Assembly (NCBI GenBank): GCA_040235515.1
Contig: JBECKX010000155.1
Span: 1-35,113, forward strand
Direction of reading: 5' to 3'
Length of the DNA stretch: 35,113 bases
Source of the DNA: Candidatus Zixiibacteriota bacterium
GTDB taxonomy: Bacteria; Zixibacteria; MSB-5A5; CAIYYT01
Positions 1,636-34,019 of the stretch are shown here, in pieces. Numbering within the stretch: position 1 is the first letter of the stretch; each line of letters starts with the position of its first letter. The translations under genes were made by a program, and so were the position numbers. The notes beneath the pieces were generated by a model. It was not told where the DNA came from. It saw only the letters and a list, made by a program, of their open reading frames with translations, and did no database searches.

Positions 1636-4600
1636 TTACTTCTCAACAACTGCGATTTTCACCACAGCCGATGAACCACCGCTACCCTGTGCCTGGATGA
1701 CGGCGAAATAAACTCCATTAGCAACCATCGTTCCGTTGCTCGTGGTTCCACTCCAGCTGAAGGAGCCGGAAGCCGAGCTCTGCGGAGCCAGTGAGGTTAC
1801 GAGGTAACCGGCCTGATCGTAGATCGCGCAGGTTACGGTCGAGACCTTACCCTGACCGACCGAGTAATGAATGGTCATGCTGCCGTCCATTGCAGGGTCA
1901 AACGGGTTGGGACCTGCCCAGCCGGAGACTGAGCCGTCGGCAATCGATCCGCCACCGTTACCGGAGACTTCAACTTCATTGCCTGACATATCGGCGACAC
2001 GGACTTCCCAATCGCCATCCGGATAGTACCAGAGGATACCACCGTCGTTGGTGGACTCGAAGTACCACTCACCCGGGGCGTCGACTTCAGCAGCCGAACC
2101 GACAGGCTCGGAAGTGACTTCGGCACCGTTGGAGTAGATGTGGATTGACTCTTCGTCAAGACCACTACCCTTGTCGGTGATGCGGATACGAATCGGGCTA
2201 CCACTGTCGTCAACATCCACCACAGGGGCCTCGGCATCAACCGGCAGGTACTGGACGAATGGATCGGTCCAGTTGCCCACGCAGTCATACGCGCCGCTGA
2301 AGTAGTAATAGTCGAACGCACTGTAGTATGACGGATCGTTAGCACCGAAGCTGATGTCGATGTTGGTCTCAAAGATGTCACCCAACCAGTCAAAGAAGTC
2401 TGACGTCAGCTGATGCTCGTAGTAACCGTCATAGACTACCGCGATGATCGCTCTGCGGTTTTCGAGGTCGTACGAGGTCGGGATACGAACCGTACGGCCA
2501 TCTTCCTGCAGGTAATCCTGGATCTGAGCCGGGAAGAAGGTCTGGATGAACTCGACGGTCTCATTCGGAGTACCGTTAGTGCCGTCCAGGTTGGCCTTCG
2601 TCACGAAGAAGACGTCAACATAGACTCCACCCCATGCAACACCCGACTGAGTGTCGTCGATCGTGAATTCGATCACCGGGTTGCTGGAAGTGTAGTAGTT
2701 GTCGAAGTTCACATCAGGAGCTTCGCAGTCGACCATGAAGGTGTCTTCAATGTACTGCGGGCGCTTCTGAGTGTCTTCGATGCGCACCTTCATCATGTGC
2801 TCACCGCAATCGAGCGGCAGGTAATACCAGCTATCGAAATCGTTGTAGTACCAGCCGTAGAATTCCACCAGGAGACGGTTGCTCACCGGATCCCATGAAA
2901 CATCCACGAAGTCAGCCTCGCCATCGAGCGTGGTCGACGGGTTAGACTTGGTCGGATGGTTCTTCTCCGTCCGCGTAGCCTCGTAGATGTAGATATCATC
3001 ATGCTCACCTTCGAAGATCGGCACGCCATCCATCCAGATGTCGAGCGTCTCGAAGTCGAGAGCATCGGTGAAGGTTTCATCCAACTGATACCAGAAGATC
3101 GGATAACCGTTGGTGTAGCCGTTGCAATCAGGTGTTACGGAAACGCGAGTGATTAACTGCTCTCCGTCGTACTGAGTGCGCTTGACCACTGCGTACCAGG
3201 CATCGTCATACTCACCGTTGCCGAAGCAGGTCACGGCGAATTCGACCCAGTTCTGACCATCCTGCTGGTAGAAACCGCGGACGGTTGACGGGAAGAAGAC
3301 GTTGTCGGTATGCCAGTTACCCTCACCATCCCACCAGGCAACTCTGAGCTGGTTGGTAGGAGTGGTTTCGTCGGCATCGTATTGCATGTTGACAACAGCG
3401 TACTGCTGGTCGTCCATGCAGATCTGGTAGCACGACACATCACTGATGTAGGTCATCATGCCATTGTTGTCACCAACCGGGGTGTAGAGATAATCCTGGC
3501 TGATGCTCGGGCGAGCCATGCGTGACTTCCACATCGCAATTGCCATGTTTTCGGTGCCGGTATAGTCGGTAGCCTCGGCCGGGATGTCGACGGATACGGA
3601 ACCGTCAGCATACCAAACCGGACCGGCTGTACCGAAGTCACGAGTGACCCAGTAAGTGTCGTAGTGAGCTTCAGCGGAGTACGCCACTTCTCCGGCATCA
3701 TCTGCGTCGAAGAAGAAGATGTGACCCCATCCGAAGCCGCCATCAGTAAGGGCATCGAAGTAGAACGGTCCAGCATACTGCTGCATCGCGCCCTGCTGAG
3801 GCAGAGTGTTGAACTGAATGATATCGAAGCTGAAGTAGTCGTACGGAACGTTGTACGCCACGGCGATACCGTAAGGCATGCCATAGTTGGTTCCGAAGCG
3901 GCCAATTCCTTCGAGGTTATCACAACCGTTCTCGAGATTACGCTCGATCGTTCCCGGACCGAAGTCCTGAGGATTCGAGGTAACCGAGCAGGTTCCGCCT
4001 GAAACGTTGATTCCAAGCACCGGCGCTGCGGAGCCGCCCTCGACGCGCATACGAACATCGTAGTCGCCATCGGCCGGCTGCCACGGGCTGGCATAAACCG
4101 AGTAGTAACGGCTGGTGTATGAGCCATCAGGAAGGAGGAGCTGTTCCGCATCCTCGTAGGTCGCGTCAATAGCGCCACCGATTGTGATCCAGTTGGTACC
4201 GTCAGTCGTGTACTCGAAGATCACATCCTGGTCAGCCCAGGTCATACCGTAAACGAAGCCGTTCCAGCAACCTGCGATCATGCCAACCGGCTGGGCCGGG
4301 TCGACAAACTGGACAGGCACTGAAACCGTGGTCGAGCCACAGGCATTGTCATAGACGGTAAAGTAAACAGTGTACGTTCCGGTGATGTCGAATCCGCTCA
4401 TATCCCACGGCACATCGAAGAAGCCGTTGGCATCCGGAGTGACATCGAGACAGACATCCTGAGTCTCTGAATCAGCGATGCTGATGCACACTGAAGAGAT
4501 ACCGGAATTGAATGTCGGTGAAGTACCGTTGACCGACTGATCATCCATCGCAAAGATTCTGAAGGTGATCAGCGGGGTGTTTATCGGAACCACGATACCA

Positions 4601-7600
4601 GGATCGTTGGAGTTCTCGATATCGTAAACGTCTTCGCCGACTGTCGCAGTGACCAGCTCGACGCGAGGATCGGTATCGTCGTAGTAGAGTCTGATCGGCT
4701 CGCTGAAGCGAGTCACACCGGACTCGTTCGTGACGACGGCACGGAAATCGTACCAGCCATCGCGATCGATCTCGCCATCATCGTCGAGAAGAGCACACCA
4801 CGGCGCCTGATAGTCAGGGCTGTTATCGAAGCTCGTCCAGTCATCGTCGAATGATGACTTGAACTCGAATGTGACATACTCGATCGGGCATCCACCGTTC
4901 GCATCAACCTCGGCGCAGAAGTAATCTCCGCCGCAGAAGAACCCACCATTCTCAGGTGAAGTAAGCGTCACGGTCGGAAGACCGTTGGCTACGGTCACGG
5001 TGACCATCGCCTCTTCCTTCGGGGTGAAGTTATCGCTGGCATCACAGACTGAGGCCGCGATGACATAGTCGCCGTTCGGTACGGAATTCAAGGTCTGCCA
5101 GGTGGCATCCCAATGCCATCCGTAGCCACCACCGGCGGCCTTGTCAAGCACGATAGGCTCAGAGACTTCAGCGATGACTGTGGTGTCAGTACCACCGACA
5201 GGCCAGTAGTACCAAACAACCTTCTTGACCGGCTGATCGTCGAAGATCAACAGTCCAAGATCAACGTCACCAGCGACGCAATCGCCATCATCCGGATCGA
5301 TGATGTAAGCGGAAGCCGGCTGGTTGTCGAGGATGTAGACACCAAGCTCATCCGAGGAGTAGTTTCCGACCTGGTCGTACATGACGGCTTCAAGGTAACA
5401 GCCATCGGAGAAGTCCTGGACATCTTCAAGATTGTAGATTCCAAGCTCGACCGGGTTGAAGGTAATCTCCCAGAAGCTCTGGTAGTCAGTGCTCGAGCCG
5501 ACGAACTGCTCGCAGAAGTAGTAGTCAACCTTGGCTACTTCGCAGGAATCGTCAGCAGGAATCGTCATCAGCTGAACTGTGATGTCCTCGCCCGGAAGGC
5601 TATAGACATAGTAGTTGCCATTCAGATACTCTGAAGGATTGATCCAGGTACGGGTCTCGTCACCATCAGTCTGGAACAGGCTGAAGGCCGGCTGCGGAGC
5701 TTCGCAGTCGTAGTGGACGAGCATACCGGAACCATTGTCCATCGCATCGTCGAATGTATAATCGTCGAAGTTGCCATCACCATCGTAGTCGAACATCCAG
5801 TTGCCGGCGCCGTCACGGACAGCGAGGCGGACGCGATACGTGTGACCGCATTCGAGATCGTCAGCGAATTCCCAGGTATAAACCCAGATCGATGAGTTGT
5901 TGGCTTCATCCATCTGGTAGGAATCATTCTGATCATAGTAGTAGAAGATATCCGGATCGTTGACATCTGACCAGAACAGGTAGACCGGATCGGTGATGTC
6001 GATAGCATCCAGATTGACCAGATTGGCCTGAATAGTGATGAAACCATCATTCTGCTCAGGTCCAAGACGCCACATCGGCTCGCCACCGCAATCCGCAACA
6101 AACTTGGCATCCTTCACCATCATTTCCATGACAGGAAGTGAACCATCGATGCAGATCTTGACGAACGGAGTGGTGTAGGAGTTGTTGACGTCATCGTATA
6201 CGATGGCATAGAGCCACACGAAGCCATCTTCAAATCCTGAGTTATCCCATTCAACGGTTGCCTCGTCGCCTGAGAACGGCTCGACTCCGATAAGCACGCC
6301 ATCAGCGGTGCTACCGGTCATGCTGTAGTAGAACTCAGCACGGACGGCATCGTCCTCATCAAACTGGGCAGGATCGCTCTCAACAGTGATCTCGATCGGA
6401 TCACCGGCCGACAGCATCACCGGCACGCACGAATAACCGAACGGGTCGCTGATCCACGCCATCGGCGCAATCTCATCCGGGACGCAGAGGTCAACTTCGG
6501 TATTACAGTTGTTGCCGCTGCGCTCGTCGGTAATCTCGACATAGAGAACGGCATCTTCACCAGTACCCTGGGTTACCGGCCAATCAAGGGCCGAGAACAT
6601 GAAGGTGTACGGGAGAGAAGTGCTCGTCGCGTAGTCGATACGAGTTCTCACATCATCTTCAAGAACCCAGACATCGACCGTGTAGAAGTCGCCGGCGTCA
6701 GGATCGACGATCGAAACGACCGCTTCGTTCAGGTCGTCGCGGGTGACGTCAAAGCCGCAGGAGGTCTGCGGAGCGAAGGCACCGTTGATCGTCAGAACGT
6801 CGCACACGAGAGCGTTCGGGTTCCAGGTGAACGTGAAGACGCCGCAAGCATCGTCAGCGTCGTCAAGCGAGAGTTCGTTGCCGACTTCGTCGACACCGAT
6901 AACCCAAAGCTCATACTCACCTTCGGTGCTCGCGTCGGTACCGAGGTTGATGGTCTCAGTGAAGGTCTGGCCGTCCTGAGTCATCGCATTGGAGAGTCCA
7001 GGATAGTTGATCCACGGACCCGGCGTACCGTCACCCTTGTCGATCAGACGATAGACGGCGAAAGCCGCATCGATGTCGGCATCAGGTGAAACAGCGGTAA
7101 TCGTCAGCGGGTTGTTCGGACCATACTGGCCACCGGAAGTCGGGAACTCGACGCAAGCGGTCGGAGCCTGAGCATCCGGGATACCCTCGAAGATGGCCTG
7201 GTTGAACTCGAAGTTACCGCAATCGTCCTGAGTACGGATCGAGAAGCGGTAGGTCTTGCCATGAGTCAACGGGCCGGAGTACCAGTAATTGTATGTCGGA
7301 TCGGGGAACTCACCATTGAAGGTGGTACCGAAGACATTGTTGTAATTGATGTCGGAACCGGTTGAGTCGACGTAAACGTAGAAGTTCACGGCGTCACCGG
7401 CATCGGCGTCCTTGTCCCACTTAAGTCTCAGCTCGCCACCCGGCAGCTTCTCGACCATTACAGAATCCTGAATGATCGGCAGCGGACGACGGGTGTCCAG
7501 CGGTACAAAAGCGGTTCCGGCGGTGTTGAGCAGGTCTGAAGTCAGAATACTGTCAACGTTACCGGCATCGTCTTCAACGTAAATCCAGACGTCAAAATCG

Positions 7601-9201
7601 GCGTCGACCGGATCACTGTTGGCGTCCTTCGCCTGAAGCGTCGGAGGATCCTGAGCCGGATCATCGGCATCACCAATGGTGATCTCGTAAGCCCAGATGC
7701 CACTACCTTCGTTGGTGAAAGCAGCATTGGAGGCACCGCCCAAACCGGCGCGGAAGAGGTCACCCCAGACGGCGGCGACATCGTCGTTACCAGAGACGTC
7801 GGCTTCGACACGAACCTGGTCACCCAGGTTAGTACAACCAGACTCGTCGGCATCGTCGAGCGTGATGTACTCGGTGTCGGAGAAGAACGGCGGCTCAAGG
7901 TCGAGGGCCGGCAGGAAGTCGACGGTGTCGACCGCGACGTTACAGCCATTATCGACGGCGGTAACGATCGCCACCTTAGCGGAGTCTGCGCCTTCAGCCA
8001 AATCCTTGGCCATCGCGTCTTCAAGTTCAAAGATCAAACGCCAGACGCCGGCACCGGTCGTTACGTCGGTAAGCTCGGCAGCGAACTCACCTGAGGCGAA
8101 ACGGGAAATGTCGGCAACGACTTCGTCAACTTCAAAGAATCCGCTCGAACCGGTGTAGACCCAGAGAACCAGCTGATCCGTAAGGGCAGCTTCGTCTTCC
8201 GGTCCAACGCTGTTGGAGTAGATCAGGAACTTGACCGAGTCGATCTCGGGCGCGATGTTGTCAATGAACTGCGTGTTAAACGCGACCGTGTTCGTGGTCG
8301 TGTTGCCATAGATATCAGCCGCGGTGGCGGTTACCACGAACGGCGGCACGACATCAAGGGAACCCGCGTCGATGCGAAGCGTGTCAAGCCAACCGAAGCC
8401 GCTCACATACGGAATGTTGTGAGTGGCGCTCAAGCCGAAGGCTGAGAGGTCGGCAGTGACGTCGGTCGAATCGACCTGCTCACTGAACGACGGAATGTAA
8501 AGAATGATCTTATCACCAATGTTGAACACCGTGTTTGCATTGCAGTTGGTGCTGTCAACATGGGTGAAGAAATTCGTCGTGAAGTCCGGACCATCGAGAT
8601 CCAGGCTACCGGTGTAGGTTCCGGTGCAGGCCAGCGGATCCCAGCCGGGATTGTGACCATAACCGGCGGTGCCGGCGGTGCCATCACTGTGAGTGTTGGC
8701 AAGGCTGGCAAGGCCGTTATTGCTGATATCAACACCATCAGGGAGGATTGTAAGCTCCAATCCGGTGCCGTCATAGTCGCCTGCATTAGCCAGAGTGGAA
8801 TCTGTCCAGATATTCACTCTGAAGATAAGTGAGTCACCATCTTCCACAGGGCGGGTCAACCCGGTAAGGTTGAGTTCGACATCCTCAGCAAACGCACCCG
8901 TAATAGCCTGGGTAGCGATTGTGGTCGATGTCGCGCCTCTCTTGTGGACGACGGTGAGTTGGTTGACAGCGAAAGCTGACTCGATACAGCTCTTCAGTCG
9001 AATCGCCACCAACGTGTCACCGTCTGCACCGATTCCCTCAAACGTACCCCGAAGCAGAGTAACGTTTGTGGAGGCAGAGCCGGCGACGACTGGATCCGCA
9101 TCCTCAATGTCAAACGACTGAGCGAATGCGGAAACGGCGACCATCGACAGCATCAAGGTCAGCACAACTGTCAGCACAAACAGATTTCGAATTGAGTTCA
9201 T
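1636..9201 (-). CDS. Giant (~2,520 aa) secreted acidic multi-Ig/Fn3-domain surface protein with C-terminal FlgD-Ig/T9SS-type sorting domain
   Basis: Signal peptide (MNSIRNLFVLTVV...SAFAQ); recurring D-x-x-G-N and D-x-x-x-P Ig-like motifs; Fn3-like segment (LRLKW...YRFSIRTQDDCGN); C-terminus GPNPFDP...IYDQAGYLV...W.G....G..VANGVYF...KIAVVEK. Start at ATG 9201 (AAAGGA upstream); ATG 9267 is an alternative. Confidence 0.85.
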   Translation of the reverse strand: MNSIRNLFVLTVVLTLMLSMVAVSAFAQSFDIEDADPVVAGSASTNVTLLRGTFEGIGADGDTLVAIRLKSCIESAFAVNQLTVVHKRGATSTTIATQAITGAFAEDVELNLTGLTRPVEDGDSLIFRVNIWTDSTLANAGDYDGTGLELTILPDGVDISNNGLASLANTHSDGTAGTAGYGHNPGWDPLACTGTYTGSLDLDGPDFTTNFFTHVDSTNCNANTVFNIGDKIILYIPSFSEQVDSTDVTADLSAFGLSATHNIPYVSGFGWLDTLRIDAGSLDVVPPFVVTATAADIYGNTTTNTVAFNTQFIDNIAPEIDSVKFLIYSNSVGPEDEAALTDQLVLWVYTGSSGFFEVDEVVADISRFASGEFAAELTDVTTGAGVWRLIFELEDAMAKDLAEGADSAKVAIVTAVDNGCNVAVDTVDFLPALDLEPPFFSDTEYITLDDADESGCTNLGDQVRVEADVSGNDDVAAVWGDLFRAGLGGASNAAFTNEGSGIWAYEITIGDADDPAQDPPTLQAKDANSDPVDADFDVWIYVEDDAGNVDSILTSDLLNTAGTAFVPLDTRRPLPIIQDSVMVEKLPGGELRLKWDKDADAGDAVNFYVYVDSTGSDINYNNVFGTTFNGEFPDPTYNYWYSGPLTHGKTYRFSIRTQDDCGNFEFNQAIFEGIPDAQAPTACVEFPTSGGQYGPNNPLTITAVSPDADIDAAFAVYRLIDKGDGTPGPWINYPGLSNAMTQDGQTFTETINLGTDASTEGEYELWVIGVDEVGNELSLDDADDACGVFTFTWNPNALVCDVLTINGAFAPQTSCGFDVTRDDLNEAVVSIVDPDAGDFYTVDVWVLEDDVRTRIDYATSTSLPYTFMFSALDWPVTQGTGEDAVLYVEITDERSGNNCNTEVDLCVPDEIAPMAWISDPFGYSCVPVMLSAGDPIEITVESDPAQFDEDDAVRAEFYYSMTGSTADGVLIGVEPFSGDEATVEWDNSGFEDGFVWLYAIVYDDVNNSYTTPFVKICIDGSLPVMEMMVKDAKFVADCGGEPMWRLGPEQNDGFITIQANLVNLDAIDITDPVYLFWSDVNDPDIFYYYDQNDSYQMDEANNSSIWVYTWEFADDLECGHTYRVRLAVRDGAGNWMFDYDGDGNFDDYTFDDAMDNGSGMLVHYDCEAPQPAFSLFQTDGDETRTWINPSEYLNGNYYVYSLPGEDITVQLMTIPADDSCEVAKVDYYFCEQFVGSSTDYQSFWEITFNPVELGIYNLEDVQDFSDGCYLEAVMYDQVGNYSSDELGVYILDNQPASAYIIDPDDGDCVAGDVDLGLLIFDDQPVKKVVWYYWPVGGTDTTVIAEVSEPIVLDKAAGGGYGWHWDATWQTLNSVPNGDYVIAASVCDASDNFTPKEEAMVTVTVANGLPTVTLTSPENGGFFCGGDYFCAEVDANGGCPIEYVTFEFKSSFDDDWTSFDNSPDYQAPWCALLDDDGEIDRDGWYDFRAVVTNESGVTRFSEPIRLYYDDTDPRVELVTATVGEDVYDIENSNDPGIVVPINTPLITFRIFAMDDQSVNGTSPTFNSGISSVCISIADSETQDVCLDVTPDANGFFDVPWDMSGFDITGTYTVYFTVYDNACGSTTVSVPVQFVDPAQPVGMIAGCWNGFVYGMTWADQDVIFEYTTDGTNWITIGGAIDATYEDAEQLLLPDGSYTSRYYSVYASPWQPADGDYDVRMRVEGGSAAPVLGINVSGGTCSVTSNPQDFGPGTIERNLENGCDNLEGIGRFGTNYGMPYGIAVAYNVPYDYFSFDIIQFNTLPQQGAMQQYAGPFYFDALTDGGFGWGHIFFFDADDAGEVAYSAEAHYDTYWVTRDFGTAGPVWYADGSVSVDIPAEATDYTGTENMAIAMWKSRMARPSISQDYLYTPVGDNNGMMTYISDVSCYQICMDDQQYAVVNMQYDADETTPTNQLRVAWWDGEGNWHTDNVFFPSTVRGFYQQDGQNWVEFAVTCFGNGEYDDAWYAVVKRTQYDGEQLITRVSVTPDCNGYTNGYPIFWYQLDETFTDALDFETLDIWMDGVPIFEGEHDDIYIYEATRTEKNHPTKSNPSTTLDGEADFVDVSWDPVSNRLLVEFYGWYYNDFDSWYYLPLDCGEHMMKVRIEDTQKRPQYIEDTFMVDCEAPDVNFDNYYTSSNPVIEFTIDDTQSGVAWGGVYVDVFFVTKANLDGTNGTPNETVEFIQTFFPAQIQDYLQEDGRTVRIPTSYDLENRRAIIAVVYDGYYEHQLTSDFFDWLGDIFETNIDISFGANDPSYYSAFDYYYFSGAYDCVGNWTDPFVQYLPVDAEAPVVDVDDSGSPIRIRITDKGSGLDEESIHIYSNGAEVTSEPVGSAAEVDAPGEWYFESTNDGGILWYYPDGDWEVRVADMSGNEVEVSGNGGGSIADGSVSGWAGPNPFDPAMDGSMTIHYSVGQGKVSTVTCAIYDQAGYLVTSLAPQSSASGSFSWSGTTSNGTMVANGVYFAVIQAQGSGGSSAVVKIAVVEK

Positions 9202-9743
9202 TCGACAATCCTTTGTTACTCGTTGTCTTTCCTTAAGTGATCTTTCTTTTTCGGCATTGATTTGCATTACGATCAATACCCTCCTTTCCAATCTTTCCCA
9301 CGCAGGTTAAGATCTTCCATGAATTCTCCTCGGTTTAGAAGTCCATAGTTTATGTCTTCATTTCTATTAATTTTCGTTAATGAATTGATCAATAACCGCC
9401 CCCCTTCCCAGTAGCTTCCATTCTAAACAAAATCATCGTATTGCCGCTTTCTTCCCTAAAAGCAAAAGAACTATAGAAATGCCGCTAAGACACTCCAAGT
9501 TCTTAACTCGTTAATGTTGGCTGATAATTCTGACTGTCTCCGTCTACGGCTTTCTGCCTTATTCAACCGTACGAAATAATGGGCACATGGGACTCGTCTC
9601 CCACCGCCCAAACTCTCAAACCGGAACGGCGATAACTCTGCATCAACTTGCCCTGCGGGGCGCAAGTGAAAAAATGCACTAACTGCACTAGAACTCCTAG
9701 CGCTCGTTGTTGCAACAGAATTATCCCCCGAAAATTTCCGGTC

Positions 9744-27522: not shown

Positions 27523-27602
27523 TTGCAACTGTAGCCGGGCATCTATTCATCGGTATTGCACTCCACAGCATGCTGCGGGGTAGGTTGGTTGCGCCCGAAG
27601 AT

Positions 27603-27662
27603 ACACACCCCGTCCTCAATTCTCGCAGAGCTCGAATTGAGTCCACCCCTCTCAAGAGGGGA
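27603..27662. repeat. Double-hairpin REP/MITE-like element at the left island boundary
   Basis: CTCAATTC (27615-27622) pairs with GAATTGAG (27634-27641); CCCCTC-TCAA-GAGGGG (27646-27661). Only one copy in the window. Confidence 0.4.
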
Positions 27663-27750
27663 TTTTGTTACCGCGCAGCGGATGTAAATGGTACCCCACC
27701 TAACAGGTGGCTTGAGGGGGCAGCTCCTACGCACTTTATGTCTTGCACCA

Positions 27751-28611
27751 CTACTTGTGAATTCCCTTCAGGGGGCGAGAGGCAGCTACCAAGTCATAAA
27801 GTGTATCACACGCTGCTTCGAATCGTGTTCTTAGCTGTTTCTCTCGAGCGACGAGGTGGGAGCGCGAATCTATCTTGTGCCCTGAGTCGTTTCGGTGTGG
27901 TGTCAAACCAGAAATCCTGTTAAGCAATTGCTTTGTCATGAGAGGACACTTTGACTTAGTTGTGTCCATATGGCTACGCAAGAAATCGACAACAGAATCC
28001 CAAGAGGCTTTGTGAATGTTCAGACTCGTTTTCCCCGCATTAAGAAATCCGAGCTTGTCGCATTTCGTGTAGATCCGCCTGCATAGGTCCTCAATAAGAT
28101 CATACACCTTAGAGCATCCTTTTGATGGATCGCCATTTTGAAATGTAGAAACTGCTTCCGACAACTCAGTCCTGTACCGCTTGGGAAATTTGTCAAATTC
28201 TGGCGTTCTGAGAGCAAGGAGTGATAAGGGAAGCGCTAGTTGAGAAACAAACACCTTGCCTCTCTCCGATACCTCGAGAATCCCAACCCCTCGCTCCTTC
28301 GCCGCGCGAAGGTCTTCCTTGTATTGTGAATACTTCAGACCTTCTGGAATCGCAATATAGAGTTTAGCCGGGATATGGTCGGTAATACCCTTTATGACTA
28401 TTGGGTCTGTGACACGTGGATAGACAACCTCTTCGATCATGATCCAATAGGCGTAGAAATACTGGTCTGTTCCTGTAATAGCGAAAGTGAAGTCAACTTC
28501 AGGAATGTGTGTTTCTGGGCGCAGCTTCGAAATGCCCCATTTCTTGTCTAGAAACTTGGCTACGTAATCTCCCATCTCATGAAGTCGTTTGTCTAGTATT
28601 TGGAACTTCAT
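27751..28611 (-). CDS. Hypothetical protein: degenerate restriction-endonuclease-like N-terminus plus HEPN/Abi-C-like C-terminus
   Basis: KLYIAIPE...AKERGVGILEV resembles the end of a PD-(D/E)XK fold; helical LSEAVSTFQNGD...IEDLCRRI followed by the R-x4-H motif RNDSGH. Start overlaps the upstream stop (ATGA, 28611-28608). Confidence 0.6.
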   Translation of the reverse strand: MKFQILDKRLHEMGDYVAKFLDKKWGISKLRPETHIPEVDFTFAITGTDQYFYAYWIMIEEVVYPRVTDPIVIKGITDHIPAKLYIAIPEGLKYSQYKEDLRAAKERGVGILEVSERGKVFVSQLALPLSLLALRTPEFDKFPKRYRTELSEAVSTFQNGDPSKGCSKVYDLIEDLCRRIYTKCDKLGFLNAGKTSLNIHKASWDSVVDFLRSHMDTTKSKCPLMTKQLLNRISGLTPHRNDSGHKIDSRSHLVAREKQLRTRFEAACDTLYDLVAASRPLKGIHK

Positions 28612-29561
28612 TGCACTTCATCCAAGAGGCGACCGATTGCATTCCAAAGTTTCGTTAGCCTACGTTTGAGGTCATCATCTATAAGACGGGATTCTATGTC
28701 TTCCAACTGTTCCAAGAGGGAGTCGATTTTAGTTTGAACATCACGCTCAAGGTAGGCCTCTGAAACTGAGTCCTCATAGGCCTGCTCCACTGTGTAGTTG
28801 TTACTTGTAAAAAGTTTGTCGAGGACGGTTTCTGCCTTGGTAGCGTCAGCTTCAACTCTCTTCGCCCTCGCGATTCTCGCAACCTGCCGAAACTGTATTC
28901 TGCTCTTAATCACTCCCCGCTTATACTTGTCGATGAGCACCTGCCGTATCTTGTCCTTGCGATTGATCAGATTTGGCATTGCACGCTCGACTGTCTTAAG
29001 AGCTCGCTCCATTTCGATGAAGAAATCTTCAGTTAATTTCTGCTGCGGCTTGGGTTTATTCAGCTCCTTGAGTATTGTGTCCTTATACTGCTGCGGCAGA
29101 GCCATGAGCAGTTTGCAGCGCCTTATCACACCTCGTGACAAGCCCGTTTCATTGGCCAGTTCCCTTTCGTTTGGATCTTGCCCCAGCCTTTCCCTAAGCA
29201 GCTCAACAATTCTAGGTAACTTCAAAGCAATGGTAAGGAGATCCCATTGCTCTCTGAGTGCATGAATATTGAACATAAGCAGCAAGTTGGTGAGCGCATC
29301 AGGCTTGGATTGAACCAGAGCAGGGATCGTTGCCTTGCCGAGCTTTCGCGAGCAAGTCCAGCGTCGTTCGCCATCTATCAGAACGTATTTTTTGCCCTCC
29401 CTGTAGACAGAAATGGGCACCTGTACCCCGTAGCGCCTAATACTCTCTAACAACTCATCCAGTTCTTCAGGCCTGAAGATTAGGCGGGGATTCTCTGGGT
29501 TTCGCTGAATTTGGTTTGTAGGTATCTGCTCTAATGTCGAATTGGCTGCATCAATTAGCAT
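28608..29561 (-). CDS. ParB/RepB/Spo0J-family protein (ParB/Srx N-terminal domain plus HTH)
   Basis: NPENPR..F....LDELLESIRRYGVQVPI, LIDGERRW arginine patch, HTH ERELANETGLSRGVIRR; GAGGTG Shine-Dalgarno. Confidence 0.88.
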   Translation of the reverse strand: MLIDAANSTLEQIPTNQIQRNPENPRLIFRPEELDELLESIRRYGVQVPISVYREGKKYVLIDGERRWTCSRKLGKATIPALVQSKPDALTNLLLMFNIHALREQWDLLTIALKLPRIVELLRERLGQDPNERELANETGLSRGVIRRCKLLMALPQQYKDTILKELNKPKPQQKLTEDFFIEMERALKTVERAMPNLINRKDKIRQVLIDKYKRGVIKSRIQFRQVARIARAKRVEADATKAETVLDKLFTSNNYTVEQAYEDSVSEAYLERDVQTKIDSLLEQLEDIESRLIDDDLKRRLTKLWNAIGRLLDEVQ

Positions 29562-29570
29562 TCTTACACC

Positions 29571-30368
29571 TCAACCCTTGAGGTTTGAAATGAGTACTTC
29601 ATAAGAACCCCTTCTCGAAGATGCGAATCCTGCGATATTCCGCCGAGTTCGCACGCGCGCTATCCTCCATCGTGAGAATGTCTCAATTAACTCCCTTTCG
29701 TATAGATAGGAGAGTACGAACGTCACTCCGCGTTTATCAAGCTCATATAGGCTACTTGCTAATCTGCCCAGATCAGTCTTGCCAAACTCTCTCCCGGAGT
29801 ACTCCCGAAACACTCTTCGCTTTTCCACGAAATACGGCGGATCTAAGTATACGAAGTCGCCCTTCTCTGCATACTGGATCGTATACTCAAAGTCAGCCTC
29901 TATCAACATAGCCTTAGCCAGACGTTCCGATGCGTCAAGTAGGGCGTCTACATCTATCTTCTTCTTGTTCTTCGATCTGCCACAAGGGACGTTGAATGTC
30001 CCGTCCCTATTGGTTCGGTATAAGCCATTGAAGCAGTAGAAATTTAGGTAGAGGAATCTCGCCGCTCTGTCAGCTTCAGTCAATGTAAGAGGATTCAAGG
30101 CACGAATCTTGTAGTAATCTCGCGGACCCCGGTCAATCAATTCTATGGCACTTATGACTCGACCCACGTCTATCTGCAGCATCCTAAGCGTGTGGACGAG
30201 CTCCCCATTAAGGTCGCCGAGAATTGCATCTTGAGGTTCGAGATCAAAGAACAAACATGCAGATCCACAGAACGGCTCAATATATCGCCTGAAGCCCGAA
30301 CTCCAATACTGCCTGAGAGTGGGGAGTAGTTGTCTCTTGCTGCCTGCCCATCGCATGACTGGTCTCAT
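29571..30368 (-). CDS. Dam-family (D12 class) N6-adenine DNA methyltransferase
   Basis: RWAGSK, YIEPFCGSA (motif I), FNGLYRTN..G.FNVP (target-recognition hairpin), FVYLDPPY (motif IV), EVLISN. Confidence 0.95.
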   Translation of the reverse strand: MRPVMRWAGSKRQLLPTLRQYWSSGFRRYIEPFCGSACLFFDLEPQDAILGDLNGELVHTLRMLQIDVGRVISAIELIDRGPRDYYKIRALNPLTLTEADRAARFLYLNFYCFNGLYRTNRDGTFNVPCGRSKNKKKIDVDALLDASERLAKAMLIEADFEYTIQYAEKGDFVYLDPPYFVEKRRVFREYSGREFGKTDLGRLASSLYELDKRGVTFVLSYLYERELIETFSRWRIARVRTRRNIAGFASSRRGSYEVLISNLKG

Positions 30369-30470
30369 ATCGCCGAAGTTTCTCCAAGAGCGCCGACTAC
30401 AACTTCAACAAAGAGTCCCTTTACTAAGTCTGTAGTGTGGTGCGGCCGTCTTCGATACCTTTGGGTGTGC

Positions 30471-30498
30471 AAGTTATTCTACTCAAGTCCTCTGTCAA
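30471..30498 (-). promoter_or_regulatory. Putative sigma70 promoter for the methyltransferase operon
   Basis: TTGACA (30498-30493), 16-bp spacer, TAACTT (30476-30471). Confidence 0.55.
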
Positions 30499-30516
30499 GA
30501 AGATTTCTCCGCCCCC

Positions 30517-31659
30517 CTACTCCCGCATCAGCGGTGTCTGGTAGATGCGGTAGGTTTTGTACACTTTGCCACCGATCCCCTCGATCGGGCGGCGCATCAT
30601 GTCGTTGTCCTCAAGGACCCAGCTTAATTCGCCACGATTGTAGCCGTTGGCGACACCGTTGTTGAGCAGGTCGTAGTAGAAGATGCTGTCCAACCCCCGC
30701 TTTTGATACTTCTTGATCACACCCAGCGTGATCACGCGCGCCTGGTTGATGTTCTTCCTGATTTTCATATTCCAGAGCAGCTTGAAGATGCCGATCGGCA
30801 GCAATCTTCCATTCATCTTGCGAAACACCTGGTTGACATCAGGCAGTGCCAGCGCAAACCCGGCCGGTTCGCCATCGATCTCCCCGAAGAGCGCCAGATC
30901 GGGATCAAGGATCATTTTCATATCTTTGGCGATGTGCGTGAACTCATCATTATTGAGCGGCACGAATCCCCAGTTGTTCTCCCACGCCTGGTTGTAAACC
31001 TTGATCACCCGCTGGATTTCGGCGTCAAAATCGCGCATGCTGATCTTGCGCACCGTCATTCCGGAGCGTTCGCGCAGACGGTTGACGATCCGTCCGAGCC
31101 GCTCGTCGGTGGCGGCTTCGCCGTCGATGATATACGCCAGCAGGTCCTTCGCCTTCTTCATGCCGAACTTCTCGAGGAAATCCTGATAGTATGGCGGGTT
31201 GTAGGTCATCATCACCATCGGCGGTTGATCGAAGGCGTCGATCAGCAGCCCCACCTCGTGATTGGTGGAGAAGTTCATCGGCCCGCGCATTACCTCCATC
31301 CCCTTCGCCTTGAGGGTGATCATCGCCACCTTGAGCATCTTGTGGGCGACGGCGTAATCCTCGATGCACTCGAAGAAACCGAACGATCCCAACTTCTCCT
31401 GGTGAAACTCGTTGTGCGCGCGGTTGATGCAGGTCGCGATGCGGCCAACCACCTCACCCTTGTGGCGCGCCAGAAACAGGTGGGTCTCCGCGACGCGATA
31501 GAAGGGGTTCTTCTGTTTATTGAAGAAATCTTTGCGATCAATGATCAGCGGCGGTACCCAGTTCGGGTTGCCTTTATAGATTTTCCAGGGGAATTTTATG
31601 AACTGGTGAAGCTCGCCGGAGCTCTTAACTTCGATTACTTCTACGTCATCAGCTTGCAT
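30517..31659 (-). CDS. GNAT-family N-acyltransferase, probable bacterial ceramide synthase (bCerS)
   Basis: FIKFPWKIY...WVPPL, GRI, FGFFE, GPMNF, YNPPYY, AWENNWGFVP, ELSWVLEDN, YKTYRIY; directly downstream of spt. Confidence 0.8.
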   Translation of the reverse strand: MQADDVEVIEVKSSGELHQFIKFPWKIYKGNPNWVPPLIIDRKDFFNKQKNPFYRVAETHLFLARHKGEVVGRIATCINRAHNEFHQEKLGSFGFFECIEDYAVAHKMLKVAMITLKAKGMEVMRGPMNFSTNHEVGLLIDAFDQPPMVMMTYNPPYYQDFLEKFGMKKAKDLLAYIIDGEAATDERLGRIVNRLRERSGMTVRKISMRDFDAEIQRVIKVYNQAWENNWGFVPLNNDEFTHIAKDMKMILDPDLALFGEIDGEPAGFALALPDVNQVFRKMNGRLLPIGIFKLLWNMKIRKNINQARVITLGVIKKYQKRGLDSIFYYDLLNNGVANGYNRGELSWVLEDNDMMRRPIEGIGGKVYKTYRIYQTPLMRE

Positions 31660-31697
31660 GACTCCCTCACCCGCTCAAGCTTTCAGGTTGCGTCTGC

Positions 31698-32891
31698 TTA
31701 AGCAACTGCGGAGAGCACTCCGGTCTTTTTGCCGATCTTCTCGAACGTCTCGAGTACATAGTCGAGCTGGTCATCGGTATGGTTGGCCGTGTAGCTCGTG
31801 CGAATCAGAGAATTGCCCGGTTCCACCGCCGGTGGGATAGCAGCGTTGGCAAAGATGTTGGCCTCGGTCAGCATTTTCCAGAACATGAAGCACTCTTCCA
31901 TATCGCCGATCCGGATCGGGACAATCGGGGTCTGCGTGGTGCCAATATCGAAGCCGAGACTCTTGAGACCCTCATGCATCTTGCGGGTGATCTGCCACAA
32001 ACGCTCGCGGCGTTCCGGTTCGCTCTTCATAATATCGAGTACCGCCAGAACCGTAGCGGCGGCCGAGGGCGGGATTGCGGCGGAGAAGATCATCGTCCGC
32101 GAGAAATGCTTAACATACTCCATTACGTTCGAGTCACCCACGACGTAACCGCCGATCGAAGCGAACGATTTCGAGAATGTACCCATCGAGATATCAACAT
32201 CGTCGGTCATCCCGAAATACTCGGCGGTGCCGGCTCCTGTCGGACCGAGATAGCCGACCGCGTGGGCATCATCGATCATCACGCGCGAGTTATATTTCTT
32301 TGCGAGTTCAACCATCTTCGGCAGGTCGACAATGTCACCCTCCATCGAAAAGACGCCATCGGCGACAATCATCTTGGGCGCATCCTGCGGGACCGACTGA
32401 AGTACGCGCTCCAGGTCGTCCATGCTGTTGTGGTTGTACTTGATAATCTTGCCGTAGGAGAGCCGCGCGCCATCGACAATACAGGCGTGATCGGCGCGAT
32501 CCATGAACAGGTAATCACCCTTCTGCACCAGGCAGGAGATGGTGCCGAGGTTGGTCTGGAAGCCGGTCGAGTAGACGAGACAAGCCTCCTTGCCCATGTA
32601 TTCCGCGAGCCTGTGTTCCAATTCGATATGGAGATCGAGGGTGCCGTTGAGGAAGCGAGAACCGGTGCAGCCGGTGCCGTACTTCCTGGTGGCATTGACC
32701 GTTGCTTCGACAACCTTCGGGTGGGTCGTGAGTCCAAGATAGTTATTCGACCCGATCATCAGCATCTTCCGCCCTTCAATCATAACTTCGGTTTCGGAAG
32801 CGGAGGAAATCGGACGGAAATAGGGATAGAACCCCTTCTCCTTAACCTCGAGCGATCGGGTGAAGGCTTTACACTTGTCGAACAGATCCAT
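31698..32891 (-). CDS. spt: Serine palmitoyltransferase (alpha-oxoamine synthase family)
   Basis: GFYPYFR N-terminus typical of FCB SPTs; GSNNYLGL, GSRFLNGT, DDAH, PLP-lysine GTFSKS; adjacent to a bCerS-like gene. Confidence 0.8.
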   Translation of the reverse strand: MDLFDKCKAFTRSLEVKEKGFYPYFRPISSASETEVMIEGRKMLMIGSNNYLGLTTHPKVVEATVNATRKYGTGCTGSRFLNGTLDLHIELEHRLAEYMGKEACLVYSTGFQTNLGTISCLVQKGDYLFMDRADHACIVDGARLSYGKIIKYNHNSMDDLERVLQSVPQDAPKMIVADGVFSMEGDIVDLPKMVELAKKYNSRVMIDDAHAVGYLGPTGAGTAEYFGMTDDVDISMGTFSKSFASIGGYVVGDSNVMEYVKHFSRTMIFSAAIPPSAAATVLAVLDIMKSEPERRERLWQITRKMHEGLKSLGFDIGTTQTPIVPIRIGDMEECFMFWKMLTEANIFANAAIPPAVEPGNSLIRTSYTANHTDDQLDYVLETFEKIGKKTGVLSAVA

Positions 32892-32980
32892 AATTAACTT
32901 GCGCTCTACTCCACGCCTGATAGATTAGCGGGCATGTATCTGCAATTGCTATTGCACAGGTGTTTGCTCTTGGGCGCGAA

Positions 32981-33009
32981 ACAATAACGAATGGGTATAT
33001 CAAAGTCAA
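32981..33009 (-). promoter_or_regulatory. Putative sigma70 promoter for spt-bCerS
   Basis: TTGACT (33009-33004), 17-bp spacer, TATTGT (32986-32981); overlaps the start of the divergent SDR gene. Confidence 0.5.
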
Positions 33010-34019
33010 GCCAATTTATCCCGTCTCTGACACGGCGTCCGAAGGCGCTAGTCACGGGTGGGAGCGGCTTTGTGGGTTCGCATCTCGCGGAGCGCTTGAG
33101 TGAAATCGGCTGCGATCTCTACCTGCTCTTAAGGGAGAGTTCAAAGCTCGACAATATCAATCATTTATCGTTCACACCGGTCATCGATGACCTCCGTGAC
33201 GGCTCGAAACTTGCCGAGGTCCTTCCCGATATCGACTATATCTTCCACTCTGCCGGCTTGATCAAAGCCCGCTCGCGCGAAGAGTTTATGGAGGTCAACG
33301 CCGGCGGAACGGAGCGGCTCGCCAATCTGGCATTGCAGCACTGCCGCGAGTTGAAGCGATTCGTTTATATCTCCACGCAGGCGGCTGCCGGACCGACCCG
33401 GGAGGGTGAAGCCAGGAGCGAAGTTGATACACCGCAGCCGATTTCCCATTACGGGGAGAGCAAACTTGCGGGTGAGACGGCGCTGTTGGCCCTAAAAGAT
33501 CGGCTGCCGTTTTCGATCATTCGTCCATCGGCGGTCTACGGCGAACGTGACCAGGAGATGTTGCAGATATTCCAGTCGGTCAAGGCCGGCATCCTGCTCA
33601 AATTCGGACGGCAGGAGAGCTATATCAGCATCGCATACATCGGAGATATCGTCGAGGGAACCATTCGGGCCGCCTTCATGACCGAGGGAATCGGCGAGAC
33701 TTTCTTCATAAATACCGTCGATAAACTCTCCCAGTGGCAGGCGCAGTATCTGATGGCTGATGCGATGAAGGTCGAGATCCGTCCAATCGTGATTCCCTTC
33801 TGGCTGCTGAACCGGCTCGCAGGTATGGTGGAGAGCTTCGAAAACAGCCAGGGACGGGCATCGATGATCAGCCGCGACAAAATGAAAGAACTGCGTTGCC
33901 GCTTCTGGGTTTGCTCCTCGGAGAAAGCGCGCAGCTTGCTCCGGTTCGAGCCGCTGCTGCCAATCGAAGAGAGTCTGCAGAAAACCTATCAGTGGTACCT
34001 TGACCACCGGATGTTGTAA
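32991..34019 (+). CDS. NAD-dependent epimerase/dehydratase (extended SDR); candidate ceramide or 3-ketosphinganine reductase
   Basis: TGGSGFVG, HSAG, YGESK (YxxxK), IRPSAVYG; divergent from spt. Substrate inferred only from context. Confidence 0.8.
   Translation: MGISKSSQFIPSLTRRPKALVTGGSGFVGSHLAERLSEIGCDLYLLLRESSKLDNINHLSFTPVIDDLRDGSKLAEVLPDIDYIFHSAGLIKARSREEFMEVNAGGTERLANLALQHCRELKRFVYISTQAAAGPTREGEARSEVDTPQPISHYGESKLAGETALLALKDRLPFSIIRPSAVYGERDQEMLQIFQSVKAGILLKFGRQESYISIAYIGDIVEGTIRAAFMTEGIGETFFINTVDKLSQWQAQYLMADAMKVEIRPIVIPFWLLNRLAGMVESFENSQGRASMISRDKMKELRCRFWVCSSEKARSLLRFEPLLPIEESLQKTYQWYLDHRML

Follow-up and report, generated by a model that had tools for sequence, protein, structure and literature searches.

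What might three tightly packed genes, for an adenine DNA methylase, a ParB protein and a HEPN protein, do together for the bacterium that carries them? They lie on the minus strand of JBECKX010000155.1, a 35,113-nt stretch of the Candidatus Zixiibacteriota bacterium assembly GCA_040235515.1 (here called the window; coordinates are those of this stretch unless a locus name precedes them). The original prediction, made from the letters of the window, had proposed an undescribed anti-phage system. The three open reading frames that it described are present (Table 1), with a 9-bp gap between the methylase and ParB genes and an ATGA overlap between the ParB and effector genes, and so are the motifs it named beforehand: DPPY (residues 176-179 of the methylase), GERR (64-67 of ParB) and RNDSGH (240-245 of the effector). 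Our comparative analysis suggests that the cassette is widespread, mobile and unnamed, and that it is probably an anti-phage suicide system.

Conservation of the three-gene operon

We assembled two sets of loci, one built around the effector gene (80 metagenome loci kept of 95 found) and the other around ParB (75 genome loci). ParB lies directly upstream of the effector in 66/80 effector-anchored loci, and the remaining 14 consist of 10 contig edges and four gene fragments. Reciprocally, gene 3 lies directly downstream in 66/75 ParB-anchored loci, with a gap of 12 bp or less in 62 of these 66. The nine others comprise five loci cut by contig ends, three that are decayed (L105, L151, L154) and one with another effector (L152). 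An adenine methylase is found upstream in 62/66 loci, of the Dam type in 37 and of a second, ~400-aa D12 family (PF02086) in 25; the four loci with neither methylase include one at a contig edge and one behind an ordinary restriction-modification (RM) pair. Ten bacterial phyla are named in the tree labels among these loci. Both anchored sets thus show that the synteny of the three genes is conserved; because some loci are near-duplicates, the counts overstate their independence.

The invariant core of the cassette is ParB plus effector. In a quick phylogeny of ParB, in which L152 forms a long branch, the second methylase type fills one clade (SH-aLRT 98; 25/27 rows, the others being one Dam-type and one methylase-free), and a further clade (L003, L006, L011, L093; SH-aLRT 99) is methylase-free. 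Median identity to the window over the 66 loci is 60% for ParB, 50% for Dam and 33% for the effector, a ranking which suggests that the genes may be organized as a chassis plus an effector. The ParB family is large and mis-annotated: 3,239 clusters match at E<=1e-30, and the named ones are labelled partition proteins. We found no family members in PLSDB plasmids or GenBank phages, where one search gave generic ParB only, and no effector relatives in IMG/VR. One of 32 ParB-anchored viral loci (L156) is a family member.

At one locus of the methylase-free clade (L006:8932-10934), the ParB-HEPN pair is directly followed by genes for a small membrane protein and a reverse transcriptase, an arrangement also seen at L007 and L056. 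This pair is possibly retron-like.

A Dam-type methylase beside an orphan ParB

Gene 1 is a Dam/DpnM-like D12-class N6-adenine DNA methyltransferase, as predicted. It scores 209.7 bits against TIGR00571 (cut-off 114.85) and E 8.6e-43 against PF02086, and its closest PDB match is DpnM (2dpm, E 1.2e-40). The FCGS S-adenosylmethionine-binding motif, which is FxGxG-like, and DPPY are intact in the window and vary little or not at all across 23 aligned members, and the target-recognition loop is DpnM-like.

Gene 2 encodes a ParB/Spo0J-type protein with a nucleotide domain, a helix-turn-helix (HTH) at about residues 130-155 and a helical C-terminus. PF02195, TIGR00180, Foldseek and VIA agree in calling it a ParB with an HTH domain: the AlphaFold2 (AF2) model, with a predicted local distance difference test (pLDDT) score of 91, matches ParB/Noc in Foldseek at E about 1e-9, and its longest VIA match is to 5k5d (Z 11.7, root-mean-square deviation (rmsd) 4.3, 216 aligned). 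Aligned by hhalign with the host's own Spo0J-type ParB, the family covers 148 columns at Prob 97.5. Boxes I and II (NPxNPR and DGERRW) are invariant in 40/40 ParB sequences, in keeping with the CTPase of the original prediction, but the Glu-Asn motif of Box III (IENLQR) is replaced. Where canonical proteins have IENLQRDDL, the window ParB has MFNIHALREQW, and a Box III of the MFxIHxxRxxW type is present in 12/12 family members across effector classes. The Box III glutamate of canonical ParB is catalytic. The invariant histidine aligns with this glutamate in two canonical ParBs, in a register that comes from the alignment only. Because Box III is rebuilt, the CTPase label is a putative one; nucleotide preference is not predictable from ParB-fold sequence, according to the accessible part of a survey of the fold (10.1101/2025.10.10.680097). 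The HTH recognition helix is conserved in the family.

The ParB is an orphan, in agreement with the original prediction: no ParA is encoded in the window or at any of the 155 loci, and the canonical parAB of the host genome is on a separate contig, C206.

A dead restriction-enzyme fold joined to a HEPN domain

Pfam, NCBIfam and PADLOC have no family to which gene 3 can be assigned, whether on its own or over 125 members, beyond scattered single weak matches. Searching the PDB sequences with a profile of the effector yielded designed-protein noise only, and Foldseek gave nothing at E<=0.001. The AF2 model has two domains. In VIA, the N-terminal domain matches four entries of the PD-(D/E)xK fold at Z 9.2-9.9, among them 2ph7 (Z 9.9, rmsd 2.6, 103 aligned), the XisH-like 2okf (Z 9.6, rmsd 3.1, 111 aligned) and 2vld (Z 9.4, rmsd 2.6, 101 aligned). 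The earlier description of gene 3 as restriction endonuclease (REase)-like therefore holds for the fold, but the catalytic PD...(D/E)xK motif is lost family-wide. In a register drawn from the alignment and predicted strands, PD has become PT (Thr in 92%) and ExK has become (E/D)-V-S; the lysine position is occupied by Ser in 44%, Thr in 13% and Ala in 9%, with no Lys among the common residues. E33 and an acidic residue at 58 are each conserved in 97% of the effector family, and in the window this acidic residue is replaced by Met.

The C-terminal domain matches the HEPN protein 2hsb (VIA Z 8.9, rmsd 3.7, 118 aligned), a Z of moderate size where helical bundles are concerned, and other HEPN toxins (HepT, RnlA, Csm6) match it at Z 7.1-7.7. 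The helical fold, the RxxxxH motif and the upstream glutamate bear out the HEPN call, and E174, R240 and H245 are invariant in 125/125 members and in 120/120 locus-derived copies. Since the nuclease motif is degenerate while the HEPN residues are invariant, gene 3 would combine a dead REase fold with an RNase that is probably active.

Table 1. Positions of the cassette genes, their domains and motifs, adjoining elements and sister cassettes
Feature	Position	Strand	Remarks
Dam/DpnM-like N6-adenine methyltransferase, 265 aa	29571..30368	-	TIGR00571, PF02086, DpnM 2dpm
DPPY motif of the methylase	29832-29843	-	
Orphan ParB/Spo0J-type protein, 317 aa	28608..29561	-	PF02195 and TIGR00180 over cut-off
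ParB Box II GERR	29361-29372	-	NTP-binding domain
ParB Box III His100	29262-29264	-	Rebuilt motif
Effector, 286 aa, REase fold and HEPN	27751..28611	-	AF2 pLDDT 95; 373 representatives at E<=0.001
N-terminal PD-(D/E)xK-fold domain, residues 7-128	28228..28593	-	Degenerate active site
C-terminal HEPN domain, residues 141-286	27754..28191	-	E174, R240-N-x-x-x-H245 (27877-27894)
Leader between GNAT stop and methylase start	30369..30516	-	148 bp; promoter/operator unsupported
REP-like hairpin repeat closing the cassette	27601..27668	-	Core pattern in 23 copies in G000; dispersed host repeat
PRTase-CE sister cassettes	L032:1912-7640; L233:325-3035; L234:581-3381; L238:628-3530		

The methylase-ParB pair is wired to other effectors

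A permissive ParB search of 401 genomes returned nine matches in eight genomes, three of them near threshold (L235, on inspection, is a canonical ParB). At four loci (L032, L233, L234, L238), a Dam and a ParB paralogue are accompanied by PRTase-CE, supported by PF24390 at E<=1.1e-30 and by the PADLOC retron model PRTase_III-A at E 1e-32 to 4e-17. At L232:2-2487, a ParB member is followed by a REase-like plus PLD-like protein, and a Dam-type methylase converges on the opposite strand. The third gene of this locus aligns weakly with the N-terminal domain of the family effector over 98 columns (hhalign Prob 48), and its HDRY tail we take to be PLD-like. A nanoarchaeote locus (L152:6468-9813) encodes a DpnI-like methyl-directed REase, an N4/N6 methylase, a ParB member and a REase-like plus DUF4062/TIR protein, whose N-terminus is a weak family match (Prob 18) fused to DUF4062/TIR. 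The Box III histidine motif is common to the ParBs of all effector classes. What is new here is a methylase and ParB pair wired to other effectors, with a retron-type PRTase or with PLD-like and TIR-like tails, and we regard this effector-swapping chassis as the most interesting part of the system. The PRTase-like effector of the type III-A3 retron Retron-Eco11 is a proven abortive effector in the available part of PMC12746101.

Divergent ParB members keep the methylase but change the third gene, from which we infer that the partner of the methylase is ParB and not the effector. One and the same ParB-effector pair is served by two methylase families that are distant from each other, and the HTH recognition helix is conserved; methylase and ParB are therefore more likely to be linked by a DNA mark than by a protein contact.

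At L032 the PRTase-CE cassette stands back-to-back with a ParB and REase-HEPN pair and an Mrr gene, with one Dam common to both.

Defence neighbours and signs of possible restraint

We scanned neighbouring genes of the genome loci against PADLOC (E<=1e-12), covering 135/186 near the cassette (within 1.5 kb) and 140/181 far from it (beyond 4.5 kb). Three fragments of the cassette's own methylase were dropped from the near set, leaving 132. Matches were found in 22/132 near and 8/140 far neighbours (p 0.006), and in 13/132 against 5/140 (p 0.05) after generic ABC, reverse-transcriptase, helicase and kinase matches had been removed by hand. The association with defence genes is real but modest.

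Hints that ParB may restrain the effector come from broken genes and from modelling. Four genome loci carry an internally broken ParB (L105, L149, L151, L154), and all four are without an intact effector; an intact ParB with a broken effector occurs at two loci (L129, L131). Prediction of the ParB-effector complex scored 0.45 against 0.00 for the best control, with contact agreement of at least 94% and partner pLDDT of at least 88. The mark applied to such predictions is reached by 116/157 solved and 2/215 mismatched pairs, but only 18/157 solved pairs reach it with a score of 0.60 or under, as do both mismatches. The model thus lends weak support to binding between the two proteins.

Two further sets of genes recur. 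A HAD hydrolase and membrane-protein pair lies beside the cassette at L037:4205-6091, L069:488-2021 and L109:9935-11463 (the last matching PADLOC 'Hydrolase'), and two defence islands each encode a small protein that has neither annotation nor Pfam match, the two having 'YRYxVExLxDGxxIYLxRPT' segments that resemble each other (L064:9443-9988, L152:5694-6191).

A model of action and its alternatives

A function in defence or conflict seems very likely to us. We lean, with less assurance, towards a horizontally mobile conflict system that is linked to methylation, acts by abortive infection and is built as a chassis plus an effector, and the particular methylase-ParB-HEPN wiring that follows could as easily be wrong as right. 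The methylase would mark host DNA with N6-methyladenine (m6A), and ParB would be a nucleoside triphosphate (NTP)-gated DNA clamp that acts together with this mark and keeps the effector switched off; it would probably do so by binding to it, and the dead REase domain would be the adaptor. Accumulating unmethylated phage DNA, a phage block on methylation or a shift in the NTP pool would change the state of ParB, whereupon the HEPN domains would dimerise, cut RNA and arrest the infected cell. In the methylase-free lineage, the mark might be supplied in trans or might not be needed for self-tolerance.

A number of observations weigh against this account. The methylase-free clade and L145 retain an intact ParB and effector; a different D12 methylase (E 1e-44) is encoded in one methylase-free genome, and that of L145 showed none. 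Given these intact loci, self-methylation in cis is not required, and the original proposal that methylation marks self has to be loosened: the methylase comes from either of two families, is absent from one lineage and is not strictly needed in cis. No parS-like site or operator emerged as an enriched upstream motif in 68 + 24 regions, and there is no GATC bias, with an observed/expected ratio of 1.03 in cassettes and 0.99 in flanks. Most loci, the window included, are without a recognised defence neighbour, the strict neighbour enrichment is borderline and kin loci are not independent. The broken ParBs number only four, at loci that were chosen by ParB motifs. On a 1.2-kb contig (L074:3-728), an intact HEPN half is in-frame with the N-terminal half of Dam, with no ParB; this fusion weighs against ParB as an obligatory antitoxin and may be a deletion or mis-assembly. 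Finally, the PLD-like and TIR-like swaps are represented by one locus each and by weak alignments (hhalign Prob 48 and 18).

The swaps could also point to something broader, an idea we put forward as tentative: the methylase and the His-variant ParB clamp may be a general immune sensor, comparable to the reverse transcriptase-msDNA core of retrons, that licenses interchangeable suicide effectors (HEPN, PRTase, PLD-like, TIR-like). Cast as a sensor, and with similar reserve, the NTP-gated clamp might read DNA methylation while several effectors dock via the dead restriction-enzyme domain.

The same genes could make up a selfish addiction module in which a ParB-like antitoxin or repressor and a HEPN toxin secure their own persistence in chromosomes, the methylase tunes expression and phage defence is incidental. 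The antitoxin-first order, the translational coupling, the dispensability of the methylase in one clade and the often solitary position between housekeeping genes (110/132 near neighbours are without a PADLOC match) all suit such a module. We nonetheless think it unlikely, as the methylase stays beside ParB across four effector classes and is replaced by a second family, no family member is found in PLSDB plasmids or GenBank phages, and ParB is the most conserved of the genes, whereas typical antitoxins are labile. The constancy of ParB fits another proposal, in which the main effector is ParB itself, acting as a nuclease or as an NTPase that depletes nucleotides, a role suggested for conflict ParBs of the DndB type, and the HEPN or PRTase protein is a back-up suicide effector. 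The rebuilt Box III with its invariant histidine hints at altered chemistry, and members of the ParB superfamily that belong to conflict systems have been proposed to degrade nucleotides (PMC10853773, in the part available). Yet the cassette ParB has canonical architecture, with an HTH and helical C-terminus, and is nearer Spo0J (148 columns, Prob 97.5) than PD-λ-5A (65 columns), and a separate effector gene stands behind it in every complete family locus seen; this proposal, too, strikes us as improbable.

We see little chance that the cassette is an atypical type II RM system, in which DNA lacking methylation would be cleaved by the REase domain, with ParB in a regulatory role and HEPN in reserve in the manner of PrrC. 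The REase fold, the conservation of E33 and acidic residue 58 (97% each) and the methylase in the same operon would favour it, but the PD aspartate is Thr in 92%, the catalytic lysine is missing, position 58 is Met in the window, intact methylase-free copies exist and the third gene can be a PRTase without a nuclease domain. Partitioning or plain epigenetic regulation by an orphan ParB and an orphan Dam, with gene 3 as an unrelated passenger, is suggested by TIGR00180 over cut-off and by database names for the homologues ('ParB chromosome partitioning protein'). This is largely refuted and merits almost no credence: ParA is lacking from all 155 loci, the host has its own parAB on contig C206, and the ParB is strictly linked to a predicted RNase with invariant catalytic residues.

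Relation to known systems

No system in PADLOC is matched by the window proteins, and the three-gene architecture has no description in the literature searched, in which coverage of comparative-genomics surveys and supplements was incomplete. The word 'undescribed' in the original prediction stands for the architecture in this sense, but the domain inventory has precedents in PD-λ-5 ('ParB/HEPN, methyltransferase') and PD-T4-2 ('DUF262, HEPN'), two systems that have been validated (PMC9519451, Table S1). Nearest among validated systems is PD-λ-5, which the available text of the same paper describes as a compact RM plus abortive infection (RM+Abi) system with broad protection (PMC9519451, Vassallo et al. 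2022). It shares a ParB-type domain, HEPN and a DNA methyltransferase with the cassette, and its ParB region has an invariant His then Trp after Box II. In PD-λ-5, however, ParB and HEPN are fused in about 470 aa, whereas in the cassette they are separate and a dead REase domain precedes HEPN. The cassette ParB aligns with eight PD-λ-5A homologues over 65 N-terminal columns only, and the effector shows no similarity to them (Prob 2.4). PD-Lambda-5_A has no match among window proteins, one match among 40 ParB members (E 0.012) and none among 125 effectors. The methylase matches PD-Lambda-5_B weakly (E 6.4e-7) and MTase_II at 3e-66; it is of the same D12 class, fits MTase_II and oMTase models far better and probably belongs to another subfamily. 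With the same domain inventory built from non-orthologous proteins, the cassette would be a variant distinct from PD-λ-5.

Pairs of DUF262 and HEPN (PD-T4-2, MAE_28990) likewise couple a ParB-superfamily gene to one for HEPN, and a methylase has been noted in their vicinity. The ParB next to MAE_28990 is GmrSD_N/DUF262 (3/3 scanned) and gives no score against the cassette family (PF02195), and its HEPNs stand alone without a REase-fold domain; PF18737 matches 0/125 effectors at E<=0.1 and PF18735 matches 1/125 at E 0.0012. AbiR of Lactococcus has a ParB-like subunit with a structural match to 5K5D and is toxic without its methylase, as far as the accessible part of a review relates (PMC13064643). 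What likens it to the cassette is a ParB-like subunit in an Abi system that depends on a methylase, and the 5K5D match is common to both. By description, this subunit goes with a sigma70-like protein and a nuclease/SNF2 helicase, HEPN is lacking, and AbiR relies on the methylase of a neighbouring RM system; we found no AbiR-type partner genes in the cassette or among neighbour clusters present in at least three loci. The cassette may thus work like PD-λ-5 and AbiR, but to judge from these comparisons it is a member of neither.

Looser likenesses extend to three other groups. Type III-A retrons (Retron-Eco11; PMC12746101, available part) share the PRTase effector family of the sister cassettes and a constant sensor with swappable effectors, but the cassette has no reverse transcriptase or non-coding RNA and its sensor would be the methylase-ParB pair. 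The nearest named Atlas clusters, REase_AHJR-like plus HEPN-M (HepT-like, PF18743), also join a REase fold to HEPN (score 0.82-0.84, a lead only); 0/125 members match PF18743 at E<=0.1, and PF18743 proteins have a length of about 215 aa. Orphan ParB clamps (Noc, KorB, VirB, PadC) have the CTPase fold, HTH and helical C-terminus without ParA, and differ in that the cassette has the MFxIHxxRxxW Box III and couples ParB to a methylase and toxin. The accessible part of the ParB-fold survey makes no mention of HEPN (10.1101/2025.10.10.680097).

PD-λ-5, AbiR and PD-T4-2, all validated, combine a member of the ParB superfamily with a methylase, with HEPN or with both, and we found no mechanism for them in the literature examined. 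The cassette splits these functions into three small, well-folded proteins. Since it comes with natural variants (two methylase families, a methylase-free lineage and four effector classes) and cultured carriers exist, a ParB switch that reads methylation and gates a toxin is directly testable. Among the cultured carriers are Pseudoxanthomonas sacheonensis BE107 and Chryseobacterium sp. Leaf180, whose cassettes have the Dam-type methylase, and Sphingomonas sp. UNC305MFCol5.2, which has the second type. If true, it would mean that the ParB nucleotide switch has been repurposed as a reader of self and non-self, which may explain PD-λ-5 and AbiR.

Arrival and surroundings of the cassette in the window

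The block has 47.6% guanine plus cytosine (GC) against a genome mean of 55.0%, low as predicted, but the flanks are at 54-55%, so the 58-65% given earlier was too high. Only 0.16% of 3,103 same-size genome windows are as low, and third-position GC (GC3) is 0.49-0.54 in the cassette genes and 0.63-0.79 in four flanking genes. The effector gene is found in 0/30 relatives and the ParB family in 4/201 genomes of the host phylum, host included. In a same-genus genome (G001, 99% complete), no cassette follows the orthologous GNAT gene, and similarity ends at 30510; the content 3' of the GNAT gene varies among the relatives examined. From the low GC, the absence from 30 relatives, the rarity in the phylum and the divergence after the GNAT stop, sequence comparison indicates that the cassette is a recent arrival of foreign origin; the GC data and the effector's absence from relatives uphold what had been predicted of its source. 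A contig of sequencing run X1 spans the GNAT-methylase junction (30182-30814); this run is possibly the source sample, so the contig argues only against a mis-join. No terminal direct or inverted repeats were found around the cassette.

The promoter assigned to the cassette by the original prediction found no backing. No sigma-70-like site is listed in the 148-bp gap 5' of the methylase, and the four such sites across the region are close to the shuffle mean of 3.5. The leader occurs once in the host genome, and the 68 + 24 upstream regions compared have no conserved motif. As the cassette and the upstream GNAT gene are co-oriented with no terminator listed in between, read-through from GNAT is as plausible as an own promoter. 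Among the listed sequencing-run matches to the cassette, none is RNA.

At its other end the cassette is closed by the REP-like repeat (Table 1), which contains a terminator-like match at 27646-27661. The ends of the repeat are conserved and its inner hairpin is variable, with copies also in the same-genus genome. We considered whether this shared hairpin might be a displaced terminator marking the empty site and rejected the idea, as it is a dispersed repeat; with 23 copies, it does not define an insertion point. One contig of run X1 goes over into a different sequence at 27601, which suggests a repeat-caused junction or a strain variant.

On one flank lies a PocR/PAS hybrid histidine kinase gene on the plus strand, and on the other, on the minus strand, a GNAT-like gene and a serine palmitoyltransferase-like gene. 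The predicted insertion between a kinase and a ceramide operon is therefore right as to the flanking gene types, but the palmitoyltransferase scores 562 bits, below the cut-off of 640. The region 30517-34019 comprises the serine palmitoyltransferase-like gene, the 380-aa GNAT-like gene (no Pfam match; present in 31/31 genomes searched) and a divergent NAD-dependent epimerase, and resembles what we assume to be a bacterial sphingolipid/ceramide cluster. Farther away, 1636-9291 encodes a 2551-aa acidic secreted protein whose C-terminal tail is presumably like those of FlgD and the type IX secretion system (T9SS), next to a PorV-like gene (635-1579).

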